Of a stretch of DNA of 64,000 nucleotides, positions 3,182 through 27,869 are shown one piece after another; positions within the stretch are counted from its first letter, which is position 1, and every line of letters begins with the position of its first letter. This DNA comes from Nitrosopumilus sp. Lineage in GTDB: Archaea; Thermoproteota; Nitrososphaeria; Nitrososphaerales; Nitrosopumilaceae. The position numbers were made by a program, and so were the translations under genes. The DNA is taken from assembly GCA_965214775.1 (NCBI GenBank), contig OZ243974.1, positions 1,888,001-1,952,000 on the forward strand. The letters run 5' to 3'. The notes under the pieces were generated by a model, which saw only the letters and a program-made list of their open reading frames with translations, was not told where the DNA came from and did not search any database.

Positions 3182-5032
3182 GTAACAGGTCGGGCTCTGG
3201 AAGCTCAGGCGTGAATCTTGCAATCCCGGAGGTCACTAGGGCAGCACCTCCAACCAGCAGGCTGATTTGGAAGAATCACAACACATAAAGATCGTTGGAT
3301 CTGCCTTTCCGGTATTGATCGGGGATCCTAGCATTACGGACGTGGATTGGAACAATCCCGATGTGATCCGCCTGTTTGAACACATGAAGTCCAGGATGGA
3401 GGCAGTTGAAAGAGAAAACCTGCACATGAAGTCCAGGATGGAGGCAGTTGAAAGAGAAAACGAACAGCTAAAGGCACTGCTCGGCCAGCAACAGCAGCAG
3501 ACGGCTACCGGATCCGGATCAGCTGCCAGTCCGGCTCCAAAGGAGGCCCGCAAAAATCCGAACTCGCGCGGCTATAACGTGCGCAAGTTCCATGACTTTC
3601 CGCATCCTGAAAAGCCGGCCCCAAAAAGGAAGTTAAAGACCAAACATGCGGCCACCTGCACGGCCACAGCAGACGCCAAGTTCTGCCCCGGCTGCGGTGA
3701 CAAACTCTCTGACTGGTCTGAAGCATATCCAAAGGAATCCGAGGATCTGATAGACGGCAGGTGGACCAAGACAGACTGGAACGTCATCAGGCGCTACTGC
3801 AAGTCGTGCAAGAAAAGGCAGACTGCCCCCGTGCCCGGCGTGCTGCCCCGCGAGCATTATGGCACGCGCATCATCGGAATAATCGCGTTTCTCCGCTGCA
3901 TGTGTATATCCTTTGAAAGGATCCAGATCATTCTGCATACGCTTCACGGCGCATACATACCAACGTCCACCATCATCCGCCTGTGCGACGTCTCGGCAAC
4001 CAGGATGAAGCCCGTATATGACGGCATCCTGGAGGAGATACGGCACTCAGAATCAGTCGCAGGCGACGAGACAGGCTGGTTTCTCAACGGGACGGGCCAC
4101 TGGGTATGGGTGCTTGTGACTAAATTTTCGGCATTCTACCACATAGCGCCGTCCCGCTCAGGCGACGTCATCGATTCCCTGATGGCAGCCTTTGACGGCA
4201 TCGTATCCTCTGACTCGTATTCTGCGTGGAACCGCATCGGCGGCAAGCACCAAAAGTGCCTCCTGCACTACTTTCGGGACATGTACCTGACACTGGAGAA
4301 GAACCCCGGCGCCGAGTACGGCACGCTGTTTTGCAGGCTCCGCGACATCCTAAAGGATGCAATAGAGATGGGCAGGGCCACGCCCGAGGAGGTGGAGTGC
4401 CTCAAGCACCGCATACACAGGCTTGCGTCTGCCGCGTACACGGACAGGGACTGCATCCGGTATACAAAGCGCCTCAAGAGGGAGATCAACGACCTGTTTA
4501 CGTTCCTGGAGCACGACGGCGTGAAATACCACAACAACGACAGCGAGAGGGCACTGCGCATGATTGCAGTGATACGGAAGATCCTGTTCGGGAATAGGTC
4601 CGAGAAGGGGATGAGGATGACTGAGACCCTGTGCACCGTGTATGCCACGTGCGAGCTGCGTGGCGTCAACTTTTGCACGTTCGTAACGGACTATCTTGAC
4701 GGCAGGGTCACGGAGATCCCGATGCCGGCAGAACAGTGCGTCGGTGCGATAGCAGCAGCAACATAACCGGCAAAAGCATGGCAGGCACTCCTGCAGGCGC
4801 ACCGTGAAATCAATTCAGATACGCAGGACTGCTGCTACCATGGAGGTGACATGATGATGATGGTGATGGCAGCAAGCGGTGTGCGATACGAGGATTCGTT
4901 CCGATCCGGCGCGCAGATGCAGTCCTGACTCCCAAAAGACATGGCAGATTGTGCCAAAATCCAGCTTCCAGAGCCCGATCAGACAGATTCGTGCCTGGAA
5001 TCAGGAACAGCTTCCAGAGCCCGACCTGTTAC
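3182..5032 (+). mobile_element. IS66-family element, complete
   Basis: 24-bp perfect IR GTAACAGGTCGGGCTCTGGAAGCT; 8-bp TSD GCGTAAAC at 3174-3181 and 5033-5040. Confidence 0.95.
3267..4766 (+). CDS. IS66-family transposase
   Basis: CPGC/CKSC, GDETGW, SDSYSAW, HQKCLLH, HNNDSERALR. Confidence 0.92.
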   Translation: MEESQHIKIVGSAFPVLIGDPSITDVDWNNPDVIRLFEHMKSRMEAVERENLHMKSRMEAVERENEQLKALLGQQQQQTATGSGSAASPAPKEARKNPNSRGYNVRKFHDFPHPEKPAPKRKLKTKHAATCTATADAKFCPGCGDKLSDWSEAYPKESEDLIDGRWTKTDWNVIRRYCKSCKKRQTAPVPGVLPREHYGTRIIGIIAFLRCMCISFERIQIILHTLHGAYIPTSTIIRLCDVSATRMKPVYDGILEEIRHSESVAGDETGWFLNGTGHWVWVLVTKFSAFYHIAPSRSGDVIDSLMAAFDGIVSSDSYSAWNRIGGKHQKCLLHYFRDMYLTLEKNPGAEYGTLFCRLRDILKDAIEMGRATPEEVECLKHRIHRLASAAYTDRDCIRYTKRLKREINDLFTFLEHDGVKYHNNDSERALRMIAVIRKILFGNRSEKGMRMTETLCTVYATCELRGVNFCTFVTDYLDGRVTEIPMPAEQCVGAIAAAT

Positions 5033-8494: not shown

Positions 8495-8560
8495 TATCTG
8501 TTTGCACTGCCTTTTATTTTGGCACCATCTGAATTTTGTTTTTGAGACACATATGGTTAC
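8495..8560 (-). mobile_element. remnant left end of the IS1111-type element
   Basis: near-identical to 18768-18831 (ggcaccatctgaattttgtttttgagacacatatggttac). Confidence 0.85.
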
Positions 8561-14825: not shown

Positions 14826-15464
14826 ATGGCAGATTTTTCATTTCCAATTTACGGTTTTATCAGCGTTCTGGATTATCTTGGAACGATTGCATTTGCCATT
14901 ACAGGGGCCTCAAAAGCAATCTCACACAAAGCTGACATTTTTGGAATTGTTGTTTTAGCTACTCTTGTCGGTGTTGCAGGAGGAATAATGCGCGATGTGA
15001 TATTTGGCAGATTTCCTACGGCTTTCTCTGATCCAACCTACATAAGTTTGACAGTTGCAGCCGGAATTGCCACATTCTTTCTGTATTCAAAATTAAAAAA
15101 TCAAATGAATACATGGCTGGTTTTTGACGCTATAGGCCTGGGCGTGTTCTCAATTATTGGCGCGTCAATTGCCTACCAGATTGTAGGCTTTAGTTTCCTT
15201 CCAATGCTGTTTGCAGGGGTTTTGACTGCTGTTGGCGGTGGAATCTTAAGGGATGTCTCTGTTAGGGAAATTCCAATTGTCTTTGTAAAGGAAGTATATG
15301 CAGTTGCCAGTGTCGTGGGGATCACAATCTTCTATGTGGCGTTGTCTTTTGGAGTTGGGATTCAGGCAGCGTCCGTAATTGGGATTGTTTTGGCAACGGG
15401 AATCCGATTACTTGCAATGAAGTACAAGTGGAATCTTCCCAAAGCCAAAGGCACTGCTGATTAG
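14826..15464 (+). CDS. TRIC cation channel family protein (UPF0126)
   Basis: FAITGA, GGIMRD and GGGILRD repeats. Confidence 0.9.
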   Translation: MADFSFPIYGFISVLDYLGTIAFAITGASKAISHKADIFGIVVLATLVGVAGGIMRDVIFGRFPTAFSDPTYISLTVAAGIATFFLYSKLKNQMNTWLVFDAIGLGVFSIIGASIAYQIVGFSFLPMLFAGVLTAVGGGILRDVSVREIPIVFVKEVYAVASVVGITIFYVALSFGVGIQAASVIGIVLATGIRLLAMKYKWNLPKAKGTAD

Positions 15465-16363
15465 GCTGGCGTGTAATCTTTTGCCTGACCTGCCAAAGAT
15501 CTTGCTTGGGCATCTGCTTTTTGTAAAATCTGTTCTCTGGTCTCATGGGTCATAAATCCTGATTCCACAGACAGCGAACGAGCATATTGTGATGCCTTTG
15601 ATAGAATTTGTGAAATATTTTCAGGTGTAACATATGCTGCTTCAATAGACAGTGAAACTGCTTCCTGGTGAGCCTGTACGAATTCGCCTCTGATTTTATC
15701 CACATCGATGACCATTTCGTCTGATGTATACTTCAAACCGTCTTCTAGTGCAGCAAATAATGAAATCCCTGCTTCTACCGGTTTGATGTCCAACTTGCCT
15801 AAAATCGATGCTAATTTTTCGTTAATCACTTCTCCCTTTTTGACTGGCGTACTGTCTTTTGCGATCCAGATGGTTCCTTGATCAATCTTTGTGGGGATTC
15901 CGGCCTCTTTGAATTCAGTAAGCATTGGCCCTGGCGCAATCCCCGTGTTCTTTTCAGGAACAAGAACATCGGTGCTTGCAATATCTCCGCCTCTTGCATT
16001 CATCATGATCTTGTTTTTTGCAAGCAAGACGTTTAGCTTGAACGGTGACATGTTAGTGAACATAAACATACATTGGCCAGTAAGATCTTCTGACAGTTCC
16101 TTGATTCCGGGAACACCTGATGATTCGGGAGCGTCTAATGATTCAGGAGCAACCAATGATTCAAGAGCCTTCTTTGCAATTTTGTCTTTGATACTTACAA
16201 ATTCAACGTCACCTTTGAGAATCTTTCTTAATGGCAAAATTTGTGTGGAACGGACCTTTTCCATCTTGATGAGGGAAATCACTTTGTATTTTTTTGGAAG
16301 CTCTTGCAGCTGTTGATACATCTGGGCCTTTCTTTTAGGGTATGTGGTTCTATTTTCACGCAA
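15461..16363 (-). CDS. rpl10: 50S ribosomal protein L10 (P0)
   Basis: ARGGDIA, TGIAPGP, LGKLDIKP. Confidence 0.95.
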   Translation of the reverse strand: MRENRTTYPKRKAQMYQQLQELPKKYKVISLIKMEKVRSTQILPLRKILKGDVEFVSIKDKIAKKALESLVAPESLDAPESSGVPGIKELSEDLTGQCMFMFTNMSPFKLNVLLAKNKIMMNARGGDIASTDVLVPEKNTGIAPGPMLTEFKEAGIPTKIDQGTIWIAKDSTPVKKGEVINEKLASILGKLDIKPVEAGISLFAALEDGLKYTSDEMVIDVDKIRGEFVQAHQEAVSLSIEAAYVTPENISQILSKASQYARSLSVESGFMTHETREQILQKADAQARSLAGQAKDYTPA

Positions 16364-17018
16364 ATTTCTTCTTAACCTCTTGTACCTGTTTTACCGGTCT
16401 GCCCATTGTTGTTTTAATCATGACTCTCTTGATGTTTTTCTCACCGTTTGGCAGTTTCTTTTCAACTGCACTCAGGACTGCATGTGCATTGACTGCCAAA
16501 TCCGCATCTTCCATTGTCTGATCCCCGATTTTGCATGACATTGACAGTGATGCTCTTGTCCTGACCTTGATTGATGATCTGAATCTTTGCAAAAACGATT
16601 CAATGGGGGCGTTAAATGGAACCGGAGTCGGCATTTTTCCTCTTGGTCCTAACAGTTGACCTAGTGTTTTGCCAACTAACGGCATTACCTGCGTGTCTGC
16701 CAAAAAGAAATCATATCTGTTGATGAATTTTCTTGACTCCCTCTTGTTGGCTGCAAATTTTTCTAATTCTTCTGTACCTACAACTGCATCGGCGTTTGCT
16801 TGTTTTGCTTTTTGCCCCATGTCTCCTGTTGCCATGACGCATACTGTTGCAGGCGAACTGGTCTTTGGGAGCTGTACGACCTCGTTTAGGGCGAATCCTT
16901 TCTTGACGTCGATATCTTTGAAGTTCATAATCAGCTCTATTGACTGCTTGAATTTTCTCTCTTTTGCAGCGGATTTGGCCTCTTTTGCCATCTGAGCTAG
17001 CTGAGCCTCCGTAATCAT
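16356..17018 (-). CDS. rpl1: 50S ribosomal protein L1
   Basis: RKFKQSIEL, LGPRGKMP, KTTMG. Confidence 0.97.
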   Translation of the reverse strand: MITEAQLAQMAKEAKSAAKERKFKQSIELIMNFKDIDVKKGFALNEVVQLPKTSSPATVCVMATGDMGQKAKQANADAVVGTEELEKFAANKRESRKFINRYDFFLADTQVMPLVGKTLGQLLGPRGKMPTPVPFNAPIESFLQRFRSSIKVRTRASLSMSCKIGDQTMEDADLAVNAHAVLSAVEKKLPNGEKNIKRVMIKTTMGRPVKQVQEVKKKFA

Positions 17019-17077
17019 TACGAACATTTTCGAGAGAGCCTACTTAAAATCGTTTTACTTGTCCCAGTCGACAGCAT

Positions 17078-17168
17078 GCAAGAGTTTACCCCTCAGTCGA
17101 CACTACTGGCCGGAGTCTTCATGATCACGCCTGCCACACCGTATCTCAGGTGAGGGGTAAACTCGTAC
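17078..17168. mobile_element. IS66-type MITE
   Basis: IR GCAAGAGTTTACCCCTCA / TGAGGGGTAAACTCGTAC, same family as the 14340 end; GACAGCAT on both flanks. Confidence 0.75.
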
Positions 17169-17278
17169 TGACAGCATACATCAAGTACTATAACGAGTGT
17201 AGGCTGCACTTTGGGCCGGACACAGCCCGCCGCCGGACGCTCACCATGGCATTCTCGGACAAGACGGCCACAGAAGCG
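17169..17278 (+). pseudogene. IS481 transposase 3' fragment
   Basis: AYIKYYNE.RLHFG..AFSDKTATEA. Confidence 0.8.
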
Positions 17279-17302
17279 GGGTGTGACTTTAACTCTAGGC
17301 AG

Positions 17303-17437
17303 AGAGGTGATCCGAAATTAAAAGCCGTACGAATTTTTCAAGTAATTTCACAGATAACCTGTATTTTGTTGATGTTTTGAGCTGTCTTGTGCAAATTCAT
17401 TCACAAATAATCAGTCTGCTAATTTCGAATCAACTCT
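17303..17437. mobile_element. IS5(ISL2)-type MITE
   Basis: IR AGAG.TGAT.CGAAATTA; 3-bp TSD CAG; inserted inside an IS66-type terminal repeat. Confidence 0.8.
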
Positions 17438-17539
17438 CAGGGGCTAACCTATTATCTATGTGTCACGTTTATAAGGATTCCACGCGCAACGGTGTTGTGA
17501 GGCATGGCTTTGGCTGGGGGTCTCTTCCTGACAATTCCA

Positions 17540-17690
17540 AAATGAAGGTCGGACACTTATCTATACGAGGATCTCCCTCAGCACCATTCTTCATCCATTT
17601 ATCAGAACCATTCTGCAGTTACAAAACGAGGATCGCCCTCAACTAGGTTAACGCAGATTAAAGTTCTAACTGTAATGGTAATACCAACAT
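17540..17690 (-). ncRNA. putative bridge RNA/seekRNA (boundaries approximate)
   Basis: two similar internal-loop hairpins (GAGG-N5-CCTC) whose flanking segments match the target and the donor junction. Confidence 0.72.
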
Positions 17691-18821
17691 TCATTTCACA
17701 CACGCATCTCCTATGCACTGCTTGAAGGTCATCCTCTTCTTTAGCATCCAGTATGATATGCGCAGCATCTTGGATGCGGCAGCCACTGCGGCCTTGGACA
17801 TTCCCCTCTTCTTTGCAACCCTCTTGTAAAAGACAGATATCGGCGAGTCTGACGGCGCATGTCTTACGTGGCTGTGTACTGACTCCACCAGGAGCCACCT
17901 CATCATGGGGCTGCCCCTCTTTGTTATCCTTCCATGGTGGACGGTGTCTGCCGAGTTTCTCACAGACGGCACCATTCCGGCATACGCGCACAGCTTGTGT
18001 GAGTCGGCAAACCTGTCAACGCCGTCTATCTCTGATGCCATGGTCAGCGCGGTGTAGCTGCCAAACCCGGGAATCGTCTGCAGTAAGACTGCATCCGGAC
18101 TGTCGGCAACCGCGCTCTTGATGCGCATGTCAATGCCTACTATCCTGTCGTTTATGGAGTCAATTATGCTTAATTTGTCATTTATCCTAAAGTTGTCCAG
18201 ATCTCTCACCCTTGAGATCCACGGTCTGGAGAACGGATCCCCATTTACCTGTATCCTGTTTTGCAGCAGTATTGCGTGTATCTGGTTCTTTAGTACGGTC
18301 CTTGACTGTATCGTCTTTGCGCGGTGCCTGGTCAGCTGCCTGTTCTGTACAGTCTTGCCGGAGGGAACGTAGCATGCAGATATGTATCCTCCCCTGAGAA
18401 GATCTGCCAGAATCTGCGCGTCGACCTTGTCTGTCTTTTTCTTTGATGTGGCAATAACCTTGGTCTCAAACGGGTTTGAGAGGATCACGTCCCTTTTGAG
18501 ACTGTCTGAAATGAACCTGAACAGCCCGTACCATACTGAAGAGGACTCCATGACGCACTTTGCATTCTTTGGAATCCCTGCAAATATCTTCCTTATCTCG
18601 TCGTCCTTGTTGTCGACTCTTGTGTTACTCAGCATCTTGCCGCCCTTGTCCATCACCGCGACCTGGATGAAATTCTTGCGCACGTCCAGGCCGACATACT
18701 GCTGCTGTTGTTGTTGTATTTGTACAGTCTTTGATTTCACATGTATCCTCTTTTTTGCGGTAATCTGTTTGTTTGCATTGCCATTTATCTTGGCACCATC
18801 TGAATTTTGTTTTTGAGACAC
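17691..18821 (-). CDS. IS110-family DEDD recombinase/transposase
   Basis: YVGLDV, VMES, KTDKVDA, TIPGFG, AYAGMVPSVRNSA, ITKRG, VAAASK. Confidence 0.95.
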   Translation of the reverse strand: MSQKQNSDGAKINGNANKQITAKKRIHVKSKTVQIQQQQQQYVGLDVRKNFIQVAVMDKGGKMLSNTRVDNKDDEIRKIFAGIPKNAKCVMESSSVWYGLFRFISDSLKRDVILSNPFETKVIATSKKKTDKVDAQILADLLRGGYISACYVPSGKTVQNRQLTRHRAKTIQSRTVLKNQIHAILLQNRIQVNGDPFSRPWISRVRDLDNFRINDKLSIIDSINDRIVGIDMRIKSAVADSPDAVLLQTIPGFGSYTALTMASEIDGVDRFADSHKLCAYAGMVPSVRNSADTVHHGRITKRGSPMMRWLLVESVHSHVRHAPSDSPISVFYKRVAKKRGMSKAAVAAASKMLRISYWMLKKRMTFKQCIGDACVK

Positions 18822-18960
18822 ATATGGTTACATTGAAAGACCTTGATCATCAAAAAGCGCATTCCTGCGTAGTTCATACCCATATGCGCTCGGACTTTTG
18901 ATCGTCACTATAACTGGCGTCATAGAATCATTAATTTAGTATCTTTATTCACAGAATGCT

Positions 18961-20178
18961 ATGACTGCAAAGGACTACACAGGGTTGGCAGTTGGGCTGA
19001 GGGAGGCCGAGAGGCGTACAATAATGATCCTCGGCGAGGAGAATTTCGACATAGTACTGGGACTCAAGTCCCTGATGGAGGCACGCAATGTGGACGTCTC
19101 GCTAGGCATGTCCTCCCGTCTTGACGATGAACCGTACAACTCCAAACTACTCGACTGGCTGGAAGAGTTCGATGCCGAGGACGGGGAGATGGAGACTGAG
19201 GGGAAATCGCTGGCTCGCATGGGCTTGGTAAGAAGTACAAGATCCGGCGTGCTCGAGCTTACCGAGGATGGAAGAAGGGTGTATGAGGTCATAAAGACAC
19301 AGTCCGAACAAGAGGAGGTCGTGAGGGTCCAGAATCTTGCCGGGTATGTCAAGGAACTGCCAGAGGAGCATATCATGGGCATCGTGTTGCGTTATTATCC
19401 GTTCATGGCCGGCTTTGACACGAGTTCCCCCACATATGGGGATCTGATATCGGCTCGGAGGAGGCTCGCAGGATACCTGTACAGGGAGAACAAACTTGGT
19501 GTCCGGAACGCGGAGCTGATGGCAGGCACGGACGTGGAGAGCCTTCTCAAGGACGCAGGCAGGCGCCGGACCAGGCGCAACAAGTTCAGGGAACACATGA
19601 CGATCGAGGAAAGGGTCGAGGAGCTCAGCGGGGATGCCAGGGGCTTCTTACTGATGTTAAGCGAACACGACCGCAGTCTAGGATCCGCCCCCACACACAC
19701 GCATGAGAGAGGCATCATCAGATCAATATTTCCAGAGCCGTTAGGCAACGACTATGGCGAGATGCTCCCTCCGGATCCCGCATGGGACGAAATCGCCGAG
19801 GATGCAAAAGACCTTGTGGACTCGGGCCTGATAGAGGACAACATGGGTAGTGGGTTCGATCTTACTGATGACGGAAGGAAGGCGTGCGAGGTGATAAGGG
19901 AGAGGTCTGGCGAGGAGGTCCAGCAGGCCGAGAAATTCAAGGAGTTCCTTGACGGCCTGACCGAAGAGGAGTTTGCGGCCCACTCCCTGTTGGGCAGCCC
20001 ATACCGGGAGGCTAACATTCAAAAGTCCGAAGCGTTTACGAACCTGCTGGCAAAACGCGTCGAGCTTGCAGCGTCCATGTACGCAAAGAACAAGATCGAC
20101 GTCCAGAGGGCCGCGCTAATCGCAGACATGGACGTGAATGAGTTTCTCGCGTACATAGAGGAGCATGGAAGTGGGTAA
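18961..20178 (+). CDS. hypothetical protein with two tandem [wHTH + UPF0175-like] units
   Basis: repeated GL(V/I)..LT(E/D)DGR and LA..(L/M)Y..NK...A...A..DV. Confidence 0.6.
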   Translation: MTAKDYTGLAVGLREAERRTIMILGEENFDIVLGLKSLMEARNVDVSLGMSSRLDDEPYNSKLLDWLEEFDAEDGEMETEGKSLARMGLVRSTRSGVLELTEDGRRVYEVIKTQSEQEEVVRVQNLAGYVKELPEEHIMGIVLRYYPFMAGFDTSSPTYGDLISARRRLAGYLYRENKLGVRNAELMAGTDVESLLKDAGRRRTRRNKFREHMTIEERVEELSGDARGFLLMLSEHDRSLGSAPTHTHERGIIRSIFPEPLGNDYGEMLPPDPAWDEIAEDAKDLVDSGLIEDNMGSGFDLTDDGRKACEVIRERSGEEVQQAEKFKEFLDGLTEEEFAAHSLLGSPYREANIQKSEAFTNLLAKRVELAASMYAKNKIDVQRAALIADMDVNEFLAYIEEHGSG

Positions 20179-27751: not shown

Positions 27752-27869
27752 GTAACAGGTTAGCCACTGCCTAGAGTTGGAGTTGCATCCCTTGCCGGCC
27801 CGGCATGAAAATCACAGCTGCAAGCAGATTCGTGCCTGATTGCTGCCTAGGCAGGGGCTAACCTGTTAC
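27752..27869. mobile_element. IS66-type MITE
   Basis: 23-bp IR GTAACAGGTTAGCC(A/C)CTGCCTAG. Confidence 0.85.

Follow-up and report, generated by a model that had tools for sequence, protein, structure and literature searches.

Predicted RNA-guided insertion of an IS1111-type element into the terminal repeats of IS66-type elements in Nitrosopumilus

The window analysed here, a stretch of 64,000 nucleotides from a Nitrosopumilus sp. genome, carries an insertion sequence lodged in the end of another mobile element, and the question it raises is whether that position was chosen and, if so, by what means. The IS is found at the TA of a GTAATAGGTTAG terminus, and the same terminus has also been split by an unrelated 135-bp MITE. 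The features of the site are:

17455..18828, minus strand: intact IS110-family element of IS1111 type, 1374 bp (ends from copy comparison)
17691..18821, minus strand: transposase ORF, 376 aa, GTG start (Pfam, NCBIfam)
18829..18831, minus strand: outer target piece, bases 1-3 (G-TA) of an IS66-type terminal repeat (sequence read, copy comparison)
17441..17454, minus strand: inner target piece, the duplicated TA plus repeat bases 4-15 (sequence read, copy comparison)
17303..17437, plus strand: unrelated 135-bp MITE within the target repeat, at CAG (74 near-full-length genome copies)
17278..17302, minus strand: remainder of the target repeat plus about 20 nt from inside the IS66-derived element that owns it (BLAST)
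17150..17278, plus strand: fragment of another transposase gene, C-terminal part (YYNE.RLH motif; 11 other copies)
27752..27869, plus strand: target MITE without insertion, used as reference, 118 bp (sequence read)

On the plus strand, nt 17291–17302 read aactctaggcag and nt 17441–17454 read gggctaacctatta, after which the IS begins; nt 18831 is c. An earlier note on this DNA had claimed that removal of the IS and the 135-bp MITE restores a near-copy of the repeat of the MITE at 27752–27869. Exactly that string is obtained when the MITE is dropped with one CAG and the IS with one TA, and it differs by a single base from the right end of the reference MITE. The CAG duplication (nt 17300–17302 and 17438–17440) is absent from the note's account of the site; in the 25 inspected copies of the 135-bp MITE, out of 74 that are near full length, the ends agree with a duplication of 3 bp, C(A/T)G. 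The stretch at nt 17278–17302, which this MITE separates from the inner target piece, gave BLAST matches in the interiors of MITEs at genome positions 1145874, 1627645 and 2403150. The neighbouring transposase fragment (nt 17150–17278), for which no Pfam match at E <= 0.01 was found, was considered as the owner of the target repeat and ruled out, since the terminal repeat at the end of its 11 other copies is a different one. Contigs from four DNA runs over nt 16900–19300, in which an empty site or a circle junction was sought, break at the repeats and none spans the insertion; one loose contig end at nt 17453 merely repeats the junction of a sister lineage with its own IS66 repeat.

The ends of the IS were placed by aligning four other full copies, which have 1–23 mismatches over about 1370 positions. 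It is bordered by TA at nt 17453–17454 and 18829–18830, so that in the sense of the IS the junctions read 5' ...G-TA/ACCATATGTGTC ... GACACATAGA/TA-ATAGGTTAG. From these sequence features the element is assigned to the IS110 family: every copy has TA at each of its junctions and no duplication beyond it, and long terminal inverted repeats are lacking. As in the IS1111 type, the longer non-coding arm lies 3' of the gene (236 nt, from the stop codon at 17691 to the 3' end at 17455), and the stretch before the conserved start of the transposase, near residue 42 (nt 18698), is no longer than about 130 nt. An 8-bp subterminal inverted repeat (TATGTGTC / GACACATA) lies 4 nt inside the 5' terminus and 2 nt inside the 3' terminus; according to PMC11208160, such repeats range from about 7 to 17 bp in the IS1111 group. 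The transposase matches PF01548 (DEDD_Tnp_IS110; E 2.2e-22, residues 43–187), PF02371 (Transposase_20; E 2.2e-22, residues 246–323) and the NCBIfam model NF033542, 'IS110 family RNA-guided transposase', with 230.3 bits against a cut-off of 140. Its C-terminal motif, GMVPSVRNSA, keeps the G, P and S of the group motif given in the literature as GL-P----S(T)G (occasionally with TA in its place), the last G being replaced by A. The element is active-looking. A second IS110-family element occurs in the genome, with a transposase 33% identical, GTAA preceding its 5' end, and variable 3' flanks. It was dropped as a candidate inserter into IS66 ends, its variable 3' flanks having given no IS66 assignment.

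The target was described in the earlier note as IS66-type and abundant, and both points agree with what was found. Repeats starting with GTAA and 8-bp target duplications are the marks of the IS66 family in ISfinder. The repeat interrupted here has a GTAA tip and bounds a MITE of about 118 bp flanked by 8-bp duplications, and the genome contains 52 matches to DDE_Tnp_IS66 (PF03050). The same repeat also terminates an IS66-family transposase remnant (genome 2562214–2562741), in which an IS66-like C-terminus lies about 100 bp inside the repeat, with about 68% nucleotide identity to full IS66 copies; this is the only IS66 gene found with the MITE repeat, and its PF03050 score (20.7 bits) is below the cut-off. 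A complete relative is present within the window:

3182..5032, plus strand: complete IS66-family element with a perfect 24-bp terminal repeat and an 8-bp duplication (PF03050, E 1.0e-28)

The first 9 bases of its repeat (GTAACAGGT) are common to the target MITE (genome 1891182–1893032 for the whole element). A further group of 2.1-kb IS66 elements has the repeat GTACAAC(T/A)TCAGG, 8-bp duplications and internal PF03050 matches (E 5.7e-19). Overall, the IS66-type repeats of this genome start with GTAA, GTAC or GTAT, and 8-bp duplications were seen at genome 1139186, 327371 and 2156284 as well as at window 3182–5032.

Is the position of the IS in the window repeated elsewhere? All five near-identical full copies in the genome lie at the same position of the same terminal repeat, their flanks rebuilding GTAA(T/C)AGG(T/A)TAG in every case, as the earlier note had anticipated. 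Across the family, 23 of the 28 detected 5' ends are preceded by GTAA, and 16 of 20 outward-facing 3' ends abut the interior of an IS66-type terminal repeat (five in the MITE repeat, eight in that of the 2.1-kb IS66 elements, two in a third IS66 repeat and one in a fourth). Orientation is fixed, the 3' end of the IS pointing toward the repeat interior in all 16. The remaining four 3' ends comprise one at another GTA-ended repeat and three in unrelated sequence (genome 90597, 1535917 and 2796494), among them that of a sixth, interrupted copy of the window lineage. The junction shared by the copies is far beyond chance, and the IS lands inside IS66 tips rather than host genes. The TAA core proposed in the earlier note is correctly located in the GTAA tip, but the shared core is probably TA (repeat bases 2–3), because the sister lineage sits in GTA/CAAC... 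and relatives have TA followed by any base.

Such a census could in principle be inherited rather than chosen, if the IS had entered one MITE a single time and the unit of IS plus repeat had then been copied by IS66 transposition, segmental duplication or recombination. The copies are indeed very similar (1–23 mismatches), the flanking repeat belongs to a mobile MITE, and in three of five evaluable cases the composite has no intact spanning 8-bp duplication, so rearrangements have occurred. Against a single entry, the IS is joined to both ends of the MITE (interior GCAGCAATC at 1627567 and 2403079; the other end, with interior AGTT(G/A)AAG, at 634052, 2403196 and in the window) and to three sequence variants of the repeat, and one MITE bears an IS at each end. 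Intact 8-bp duplications enclose MITE plus IS at genome 634052/635533 and 2397369/2398111, indicating that at these loci the IS entered a resident element. When the occupied repeats were checked for extended identity beyond the repeat on both sides, it was not common to all. In another genome, the A-variant of the target repeat is occupied by a related element (L004), whose guide is changed to match. Copying of one ancestral junction would also leave the guide-flank covariation described below unexplained, and it is considered extremely improbable.

Selection of the site by the IS itself directs attention to its 3' non-coding arm, in which the following segments are predicted:

17455..17676, minus strand: predicted seekRNA/bridge-RNA gene, the conserved 3' non-coding arm, 222 nt, with target and donor loops (22-element alignment)
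17644..17651, minus strand: putative target top-strand guide, 8 nt, RNA UUAACCUA (covaries with the right flank, 35 elements)
17628..17640, minus strand: predicted hairpin 1, capping the target loop (folded in all 22 of the aligned elements)
17618..17622, minus strand: putative target bottom-strand guide, RNA GUAAC (alignment, left-flank test)
17583..17587, minus strand: putative donor top-strand guide, AUGGU (alignment)
17566..17579, minus strand: predicted hairpin 2, capping the donor loop (folded in all 22 sequences; two pairs of helix 4 have double changes)
17557..17564, minus strand: putative donor bottom-strand guide, AUAGAUAA (alignment)

The segment UUAACCUA is complementary to positions 5–12 of the IS66-type repeat (TAGGTTAG), with a G.U pair at position 12, and GUAAC reproduces the repeat tip G-TA-A together with the base that follows. 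In relatives the bottom-strand guide copies 4–5 further bases of the left flank; the window element can match only G plus the core, because the sequence outside the repeat tip varies. On the donor side, AUGGU is complementary to ACCAT at the 5' end of the IS, and the relatives L014, L033 and L044, with an ATCAT 5' end, have AUGAU at this guide. Likewise, AUAGAUAA is identical to the 3' end of the IS plus the core, and an A/G position in this guide matches the element's own 3' end (ATAGA or ATGGA). The order of the guides, with the top-strand match 5' of the bottom-strand match, is that reported for IS1111-type seekRNAs in PMC11187229. In the 22-element alignment, four helices with 21 pairs are 96.1% paired, compared with 31–42% when slid, and 46 cells show double changes, where shuffling gives 14.6 and none of 500 shuffles attains the observed number. 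In all 22 sequences the two capping hairpins are predicted to form, and the stem sequences of hairpin 1 differ among them. An Rfam scan of nt 17300–18900 (E <= 10) gave two chance-level hits only and no matching bridge-RNA family. When guide reprogramming was sought in the last 167 nt of the element, almost none was found, the variable guide being further upstream, before hairpin 1. Guide segments were delimited from one MAFFT alignment, in which L014 is misaligned and L012 is without the segment.

If these segments act as guides, they should change together with the sites. This was examined for 25 distinct guides in 35 elements, drawn from this genome and from Nitrosopumilaceae MAGs. Pairing a guide with the right flank of its own element gives a longest Watson-Crick run of 5.72 on average, compared with 3.20 for the flanks of other guides (840 pairs), and 0 of 20,000 permutations attain the observed mean. 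On the left, contiguous identity upstream of TAA averages 2.95 for an element's own flank and 0.34 for those of others (19 distinct guides), and again 0 of 20,000 permutations are as high. Weak guide-flank runs of 3–4 occur in L019, L032, L044, L010, L020 and L033. Within this genome, the window lineage pairs UUAACCUA with TAGGTTAG, and a 576-bp sister lineage pairs UUGAUGU with ACATCAG; the latter is non-autonomous, and its changed guide matches a different IS66 repeat, that of the 2.1-kb element, which is its own location. The description of the IS as 'programmed' in the earlier note is supported in this sense, because guide segments in the 3' arm covary with both flanks. The occupied and empty ends that the note had wished to see compared were also counted. 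Ends of the MITE repeat are occupied in 5 of 57 cases, and those matching the guide perfectly more often (3 of 5) than the others (2 of 52; Fisher p 0.003, with small counts). Occupied ends of the 2.1-kb IS66 repeat number 5 of 46, made up of 4 of 11 perfect matches and 1 of 35 others (p 0.009, again with small counts). It is shown by computation where the copies lie, that guides and stems covary, and that occupancy is biased.

Targeting could alternatively be read by the recombinase itself, from GTA(A) tips or from the DNA structure of transposon ends, with the 3' arm serving only in regulation or end recognition. The GTA tip is the sole feature common to all targets in this genome, and the bottom-strand match is only 4–5 nt, which in the window element is short for an RNA-DNA duplex; moreover, the small RNA linked to ISPpu9 was reported not to be required for transposition (PMC12288879). 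GTAA alone, however, is far too common to place 16 of 20 ends in IS66 repeats, and the 8-nt segment shifts with the flank both within the genome and across the 25 distinct guides. A single MAG holds two sublineages (L025–L029 versus L030, L031 and L036) in which both guides differ and the two sites match accordingly. Together with the bias of occupancy toward perfect complements, this makes recognition by protein or structure alone highly unlikely. RNA-guided insertion into IS66-type tips is the best explanation and very probably the correct one.

The mechanism proposed is that the DEDD recombinase of the IS1111-type element is directed to its target by an RNA encoded in the 222-nt 3' arm and having two internal loops, each of which would be capped by a hairpin. 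The 5' side of the target loop (UUAACCUA) would pair with the top strand at positions 5–12 of the repeat, and its 3' side (GUAAC), having the sequence of the repeat tip, would pair with the bottom strand there; the segments of the donor loop would recognise both termini of the IS itself. The IS would then be placed by recombination at the TA within the GTA tip, between repeat bases 3 and 4 and in a single orientation. Since the sequence beyond a transposon end is arbitrary, the bottom-strand guide would use only G plus the core, and specificity would therefore reside mostly in the 8-nt top-strand guide. A change in that guide alone has probably moved sister lineages to other IS66 subfamilies. 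From the published mechanism of IS1111/IS110 elements we infer that the arm is transcribed and that its RNA associates with the recombinase and guides insertion.

What insertion does to the occupied transposon is a separate matter. IS66 tips might simply be abundant, neutral landing pads that spare host genes, the occupied IS66 elements and MITEs remaining mobile. The inner junction reads ATA-ATAGG..., keeping repeat bases 2–23 and altering base 1 alone (G to A), so the whole repeat but for its first base is preserved; the IS66 and IS1111-type families coexist in large numbers in the genome, and the low occupancy (5/57 and 5/46) gives no sign of IS66 families being shut down. Against harmlessness, all IS66-type ends found here begin with GT, and GTAA tips are a hallmark of the family, which suggests a role of base 1 in cleavage; in a comparison that was not systematic, no element gave signs of having moved once it was occupied. 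A harmless refuge of this kind may be what the tips provide, at somewhat less than an even chance. Immobilisation of the occupied transposon, which the earlier note held probable, is plausible from the sequence, through loss of repeat function by the change of base 1.

As a tentative wider reading, possible if not favoured, ammonia-oxidising archaea may harbor a guild of RNA-guided IS1111-type elements specialised on the GTA(A) tip. The invariant tip would supply the core and a fixed guide, so that a hop between subfamilies would require a change of the 8-nt top-strand guide only. This would amount to hyperparasitism with co-evolution of guides and repeats, in which the 576-bp derivatives use their own guide and a borrowed recombinase, and by which IS66 expansion is perhaps capped. 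RNA-guided insertion would provide a case of natural reprogramming of a bridge/seek RNA, sister elements differing mainly in one 8-nt guide and the IS66 repeats in which they sit differing accordingly, and would yield naturally occurring pairs of guide and target for a recombinase of the IS110/IS1111 class from archaea. It would extend transposon-on-transposon targeting, as of Tn21 by IS4321/IS5075, to the IS66 family and to archaea, and provides a system in which possible restraint of one mobile element by another can be tested. IS1111-type insertion would also explain, for annotators, the frequent interruption of IS66 ends and MITEs at base 3 in this genome.

Among the closest known systems are IS4321 and IS5075, members of the IS1111 family which, in work attributed to Partridge and Hall in 2003, reportedly target the 38-bp terminal repeats of Tn21-family transposons. 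Like them, the window element enters the terminal inverted repeats of a transposon family other than its own, at a single position and with a single orientation. The repeats entered here are of IS66 type, not the 38-bp Tn21/Tn3-family type, so the likeness is one of behaviour and not of membership. IS4321 and IS5075 are reported to insert inside the Tn21 repeat, compared with repeat bases 2–3 for the window element, and several sister lineages are present here in one genome, each addressing a different target subfamily. No literature linking IS1111 or IS110 targeting to IS66 repeats was found in a search, and the supplementary tables of PMC11187229 and PMC11208160 might list related archaeal elements. 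With ISEc11, ISKpn4 and ISPa11, as described in these two papers, the window element shares a DEDD recombinase with PF01548 and PF02371, subterminal inverted repeats, a long non-coding arm downstream of the gene with separate segments matching its own ends, a dinucleotide core and a fixed orientation of insertion. It differs from them in its archaeal hosts (this genome and Nitrosopumilaceae MAGs), in a target at the extreme tip of another IS family's repeat, with a bottom-strand guide cut to G plus the core, and in its C-terminal motif (G..P....SA, not SG/TG), and it is known here from sequence alone. ISPpu9 of Pseudomonas putida, with its separately mobile ssr9 module (PMC12288879), resembles it in having an RNA-coding 3' module that occurs alone and in tandem behind full copies, and circles with the RNA module alone have been detected; in that account, ISPpu9 targets REP sequences and its RNA is reported to be dispensable. 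In contrast to ISPpu9, the boundary of the module here lies exactly at the DNA encoding the GUAA guide. The proposed mechanism is a known one, and it is the target that is new.

The insertion sequence (IS) under study belongs to the IS1111 type of the IS110 family and interrupts the tip of an IS66-type terminal repeat.

Window 17455-18828, minus strand: IS1111-type element, 1374 bp, one long ORF
Window 17691-18821, minus strand: transposase ORF, with both Pfam domains of IS110-family transposases

The NCBIfam model NF033542 (IS110 family RNA-guided transposase) matches the ORF at 230 bits. In element orientation (slash, element boundary) the 5' junction reads ...CAATG-TA/ACCATATGTGTC and the 3' junction GACACATAGA/TA-ATAGGTTAGCCCC. 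The repeat split by the IS is split again by an unrelated 135-bp MITE (window 17303-17437), which lies between two copies of CAG, a 3-bp duplication. An earlier note held that removing both insertions would restore a near-copy of the end of a 118-bp MITE (window 27752-27869); excision of each, together with a single copy of its duplication, does yield the claimed string, which differs from that end by a single base. The shared core lies within the repeat tip, as had also been proposed, but is more likely TA than the TAA named there.

IS66 repeats were delimited by pairing GTA-initiated inverted repeats around DDE_Tnp_IS66 genes (52 matches in the genome, 49 of them above the curated cut-off). 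The GTACAACTTCAGGTCC... repeat forms the ends of 2.1-kb IS66 elements with 8-bp duplications, GTAACAGGTCGGGCTCTGGAAG those of an IS66 element in the window (3182-5032), and GTAAGAGTTTACCCC those of a third IS66 group. The repeat struck by the window IS is present at 56 genome sites at no more than 3 mismatches; most of these form pairs spaced by about 107 bp and bearing 8-bp duplications. No intact autonomous owner of this MITE repeat was found in the genome. One such end, however, lies about 100 bp downstream of the remnant of an IS66-like transposase C-terminus (genome 2562214-2562741), which shares about 68% nucleotide identity with full IS66 copies and has a Pfam score of its own below the cut-off. 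Since the same end follows this remnant and the MITEs have 8-bp duplications, the label 'IS66-type' is justified. A transposase fragment directly left of the repeat (window 17150-17278) was rejected as a candidate, being part of a different IS.

For a genome survey, the element and its ends served as BLAST queries against the single 2.83-Mb contig containing the window. Five near-identical full copies (1-23 mismatches of about 1370) and one interrupted copy were recovered, along with seven copies of a 576-bp internal-deletion derivative, two further deletion derivatives, and solo ends. Four of the 576-bp copies are identical and six lie within 2 mismatches of one another, while one differs by 20-21. 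GTAA, as printed, directly precedes 23 of the 28 detected 5' ends. Among 24 detected 3' ends, four run on into internal IS sequence, as tandem partial copies, and 20 face outward; in every repeat-associated case the IS 3' end points toward the repeat interior. The full copies bear out the earlier expectation that other insertions would also rebuild such ends, as 5/5 sit in the 118-bp MITE repeat.

Setting of the 20 outward-facing 3' ends in the genome
118-bp MITE repeat: 5/20 (all five full copies)
GTACAAC(A/T)TCAGG... repeat: 8/20 (two retain just the first 8-9 bases)
GTAAC/GAGCTC.GG.TCTGGAAG repeat: 2/20
GTACGAGTTTACCCC repeat: 1/20
Another multi-copy sequence: 1/20 (GTA precedes 40/44 of its copies)
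Outside any recognisable repeat: 3/20

The 3' arm of the element, which is retained in relatives from other archaeal genomes (transposases 50-57% identical in many Nitrosopumilaceae MAGs, 82-90% in one MAG), is predicted to fold into an outer stem, a target loop (closing pair CUGC/GCAG, capped by hairpin 1) and a donor loop (closing pair GGAUG/UGUCC, capped by hairpin 2). An alignment of 22 sequences contains four alignable helices with 21 pairs in all, and pairing in them reaches 96.1%; sliding the partner by 1-3 columns, a control that accounts for relatedness, lowers this to 31-42%. Double-change cells number 46 versus 14.6 in shuffles, with 0/500 shuffles as high, although this control does not account for relatedness. 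Both hairpins fold in 22/22 sequences, and their stems take many different forms. Within an element, hairpins 1 (17628-17640) and 2 (17566-17579) are far more alike than either is to the hairpins of other elements, which suggests concerted change or a single protein contact common to both.

The target loop of the window element carries UUAACCUA on its 5' side, complementary to TAGGTTAG at repeat positions 5-12 (position 12 forms a G.U pair); on its 3' side, GUAAC equals the repeat tip. This order, with the top-strand match before the bottom-strand match, is the same as that of IS1111-type seekRNAs in an excerpt of PMC11187229. In the 576-bp lineage, the top-strand guide UUGAUGU is the complement of ACATCAG, positions 6-12 of the IS66 repeat it occupies. 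Among related loci in other archaeal genomes, L004 has the guide UUAUCCUA and sits in a TAGGATAG variant of the MITE repeat, and L020 has UUAAACUA and sits in GTAACAGTTCGG.... The donor-loop segments vary in step with the two ends of the element itself: AU(A/G)GAUA goes with the 3' end CAT(A/G)GA-TA, AUGGU with the 5' end ACCAT, and AUGAU with ATCAT.

Guides and flanks also covary across elements. In 35 elements with 25 distinct guides (L012, a related locus that is without the segment, was excluded), the longest Watson-Crick run between the top-strand guide and its own right flank averages 5.72, compared with 3.20 for other flanks (840 pairs). Identity between the bottom-strand guide (19 distinct guides) and its own left flank extends upstream of TAA over a mean of 2.95 contiguous bases, versus 0.34 for other flanks. 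Neither observed mean was reached in 20,000 permutations of the respective test. For elements that occupy GTA-tipped repeats, agreement with the left flank is limited to the G, as expected given that the sequence beyond the transposon end is arbitrary.

Occupancy follows the guides as well. The MITE-type repeat is occupied at 5/57 ends (56 motif matches plus the window copy): 3/5 of those reading GTAA + TAGGTTAG, the perfect complement, versus 2/52 others (Fisher p 0.003). For the 2.1-kb IS66 repeat, 5/46 ends are occupied under a stricter motif, which left out four more occupied ends with deviant interiors; ACATCAG ends account for 4/11 and other variants for 1/35 (p 0.009). Both tests agree in direction, and the counts are small.

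That the IS merely hitch-hiked with a spreading host element was rejected, as it is joined to both MITE end types and to three repeat sequence variants. The 116-bp MITE at genome 2403080-2403195 is occupied at both ends: within genome 2401545-2404567, a full IS copy sits in each of its terminal repeats, head to head. Two insertions show an intact 8-bp duplication surrounding host element plus IS, and the IS therefore entered a resident element; the duplications are mismatched in three other evaluable cases. A similar doubly occupied MITE of about 85 bp lies beside locus L013 in a Nitrosopumilus MAG. Because the repeat at the inner junction is intact save for base 1 (A instead of G), the earlier idea that insertion immobilises the IS66 element is kept as a hypothesis, with chances about evenly balanced.

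A 167-nt 3' unit stands alone at genome 69468, 114993 and 2249595 (unit ends), in each case in an IS66-type repeat, and also occurs in tandem behind three copies. It starts exactly after the GTAA encoding the bottom-strand guide, while a 110-nt unit behind a fourth copy starts at the TA adjoining donor-guide DNA.

Extra 3' units in tandem, each behind a full or deleted copy
Genome 2402914-2403079
Genome 1167111-1167277
Genome 2397369-2397535
Genome 634052-634161

Since the unit boundaries lie at guide-encoding DNA, they suggest recombination at target or end look-alikes within the guide genes themselves. A bench precedent for such products is ISPpu9, for which circles with the RNA module alone were detected, according to an excerpt of PMC12288879. 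The 576-bp derivatives (genome 915049-915624 and six further sites) still have their two ends and a complete RNA arm with a guide of their own. The 94 N-terminal codons that they retain share only 67% identity with the window transposase, and the genome contains no full-length parent, which implies that they may be mobilised in trans or that the parent was lost.

Other mobile elements were noted as well. The 135-bp MITE family has 74 near-full-length copies genome-wide; its ends read AGAGGTGATCCGAAATT..., and printed copies show a 3-bp duplication of the form C(A/T)G. The window copy is inserted in the IS66-type repeat that also holds the IS. The fragment at window 17150-17278 derives from an abundant IS (11 other copies, YYNE.RLH-type transposase C-terminus, ends ...CCATATAACACA), of which other copies terminate near window 6593 and 9362 and one is inserted in the 3' tip of an IS110 copy (genome 1535917); its 76 residues gave no Pfam match. 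A solo 58-nt 5' end of the window IS family (window 8499-8556, minus strand) has GTAA before it and the end of yet another MITE after it. A second IS110-family element (genome 2746625-2747977, 2749895-2751247 and 2030267-2031619; transposase about 33% identical) likewise has GTAA before its 5' end. Its 3' flanks vary, 2-3 of them being in a GTACTTCCTAGG-type repeat. Hybrids in which 64 nt from the start of the window-type IS are fused to this element occur at genome 548989, 808478 and 1299352. Just upstream of the cluster, two ORFs (window 15461-17027, minus strand) resemble archaeal ribosomal proteins in translation; if both are such proteins, the nested transposons directly adjoin a ribosomal protein operon.

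By analogy, the predicted mechanism is that of IS1111-type seekRNA/bridge-RNA elements. A literature search found no paper describing such IS66-tip targeting, and supplementary tables of two 2024 papers may list related elements. IS4321 and IS5075 reportedly sit inside the terminal repeat of Tn21, and the window element likewise sits inside another transposon's terminal repeat. New here are IS66 as the target family, the archaeal setting, a nearly one-sided use of the guide at the extreme tip of the repeat, and the coexistence in one genome of several lineages that each carry a guide to a different IS66 subfamily, one of them non-autonomous and recently amplified.
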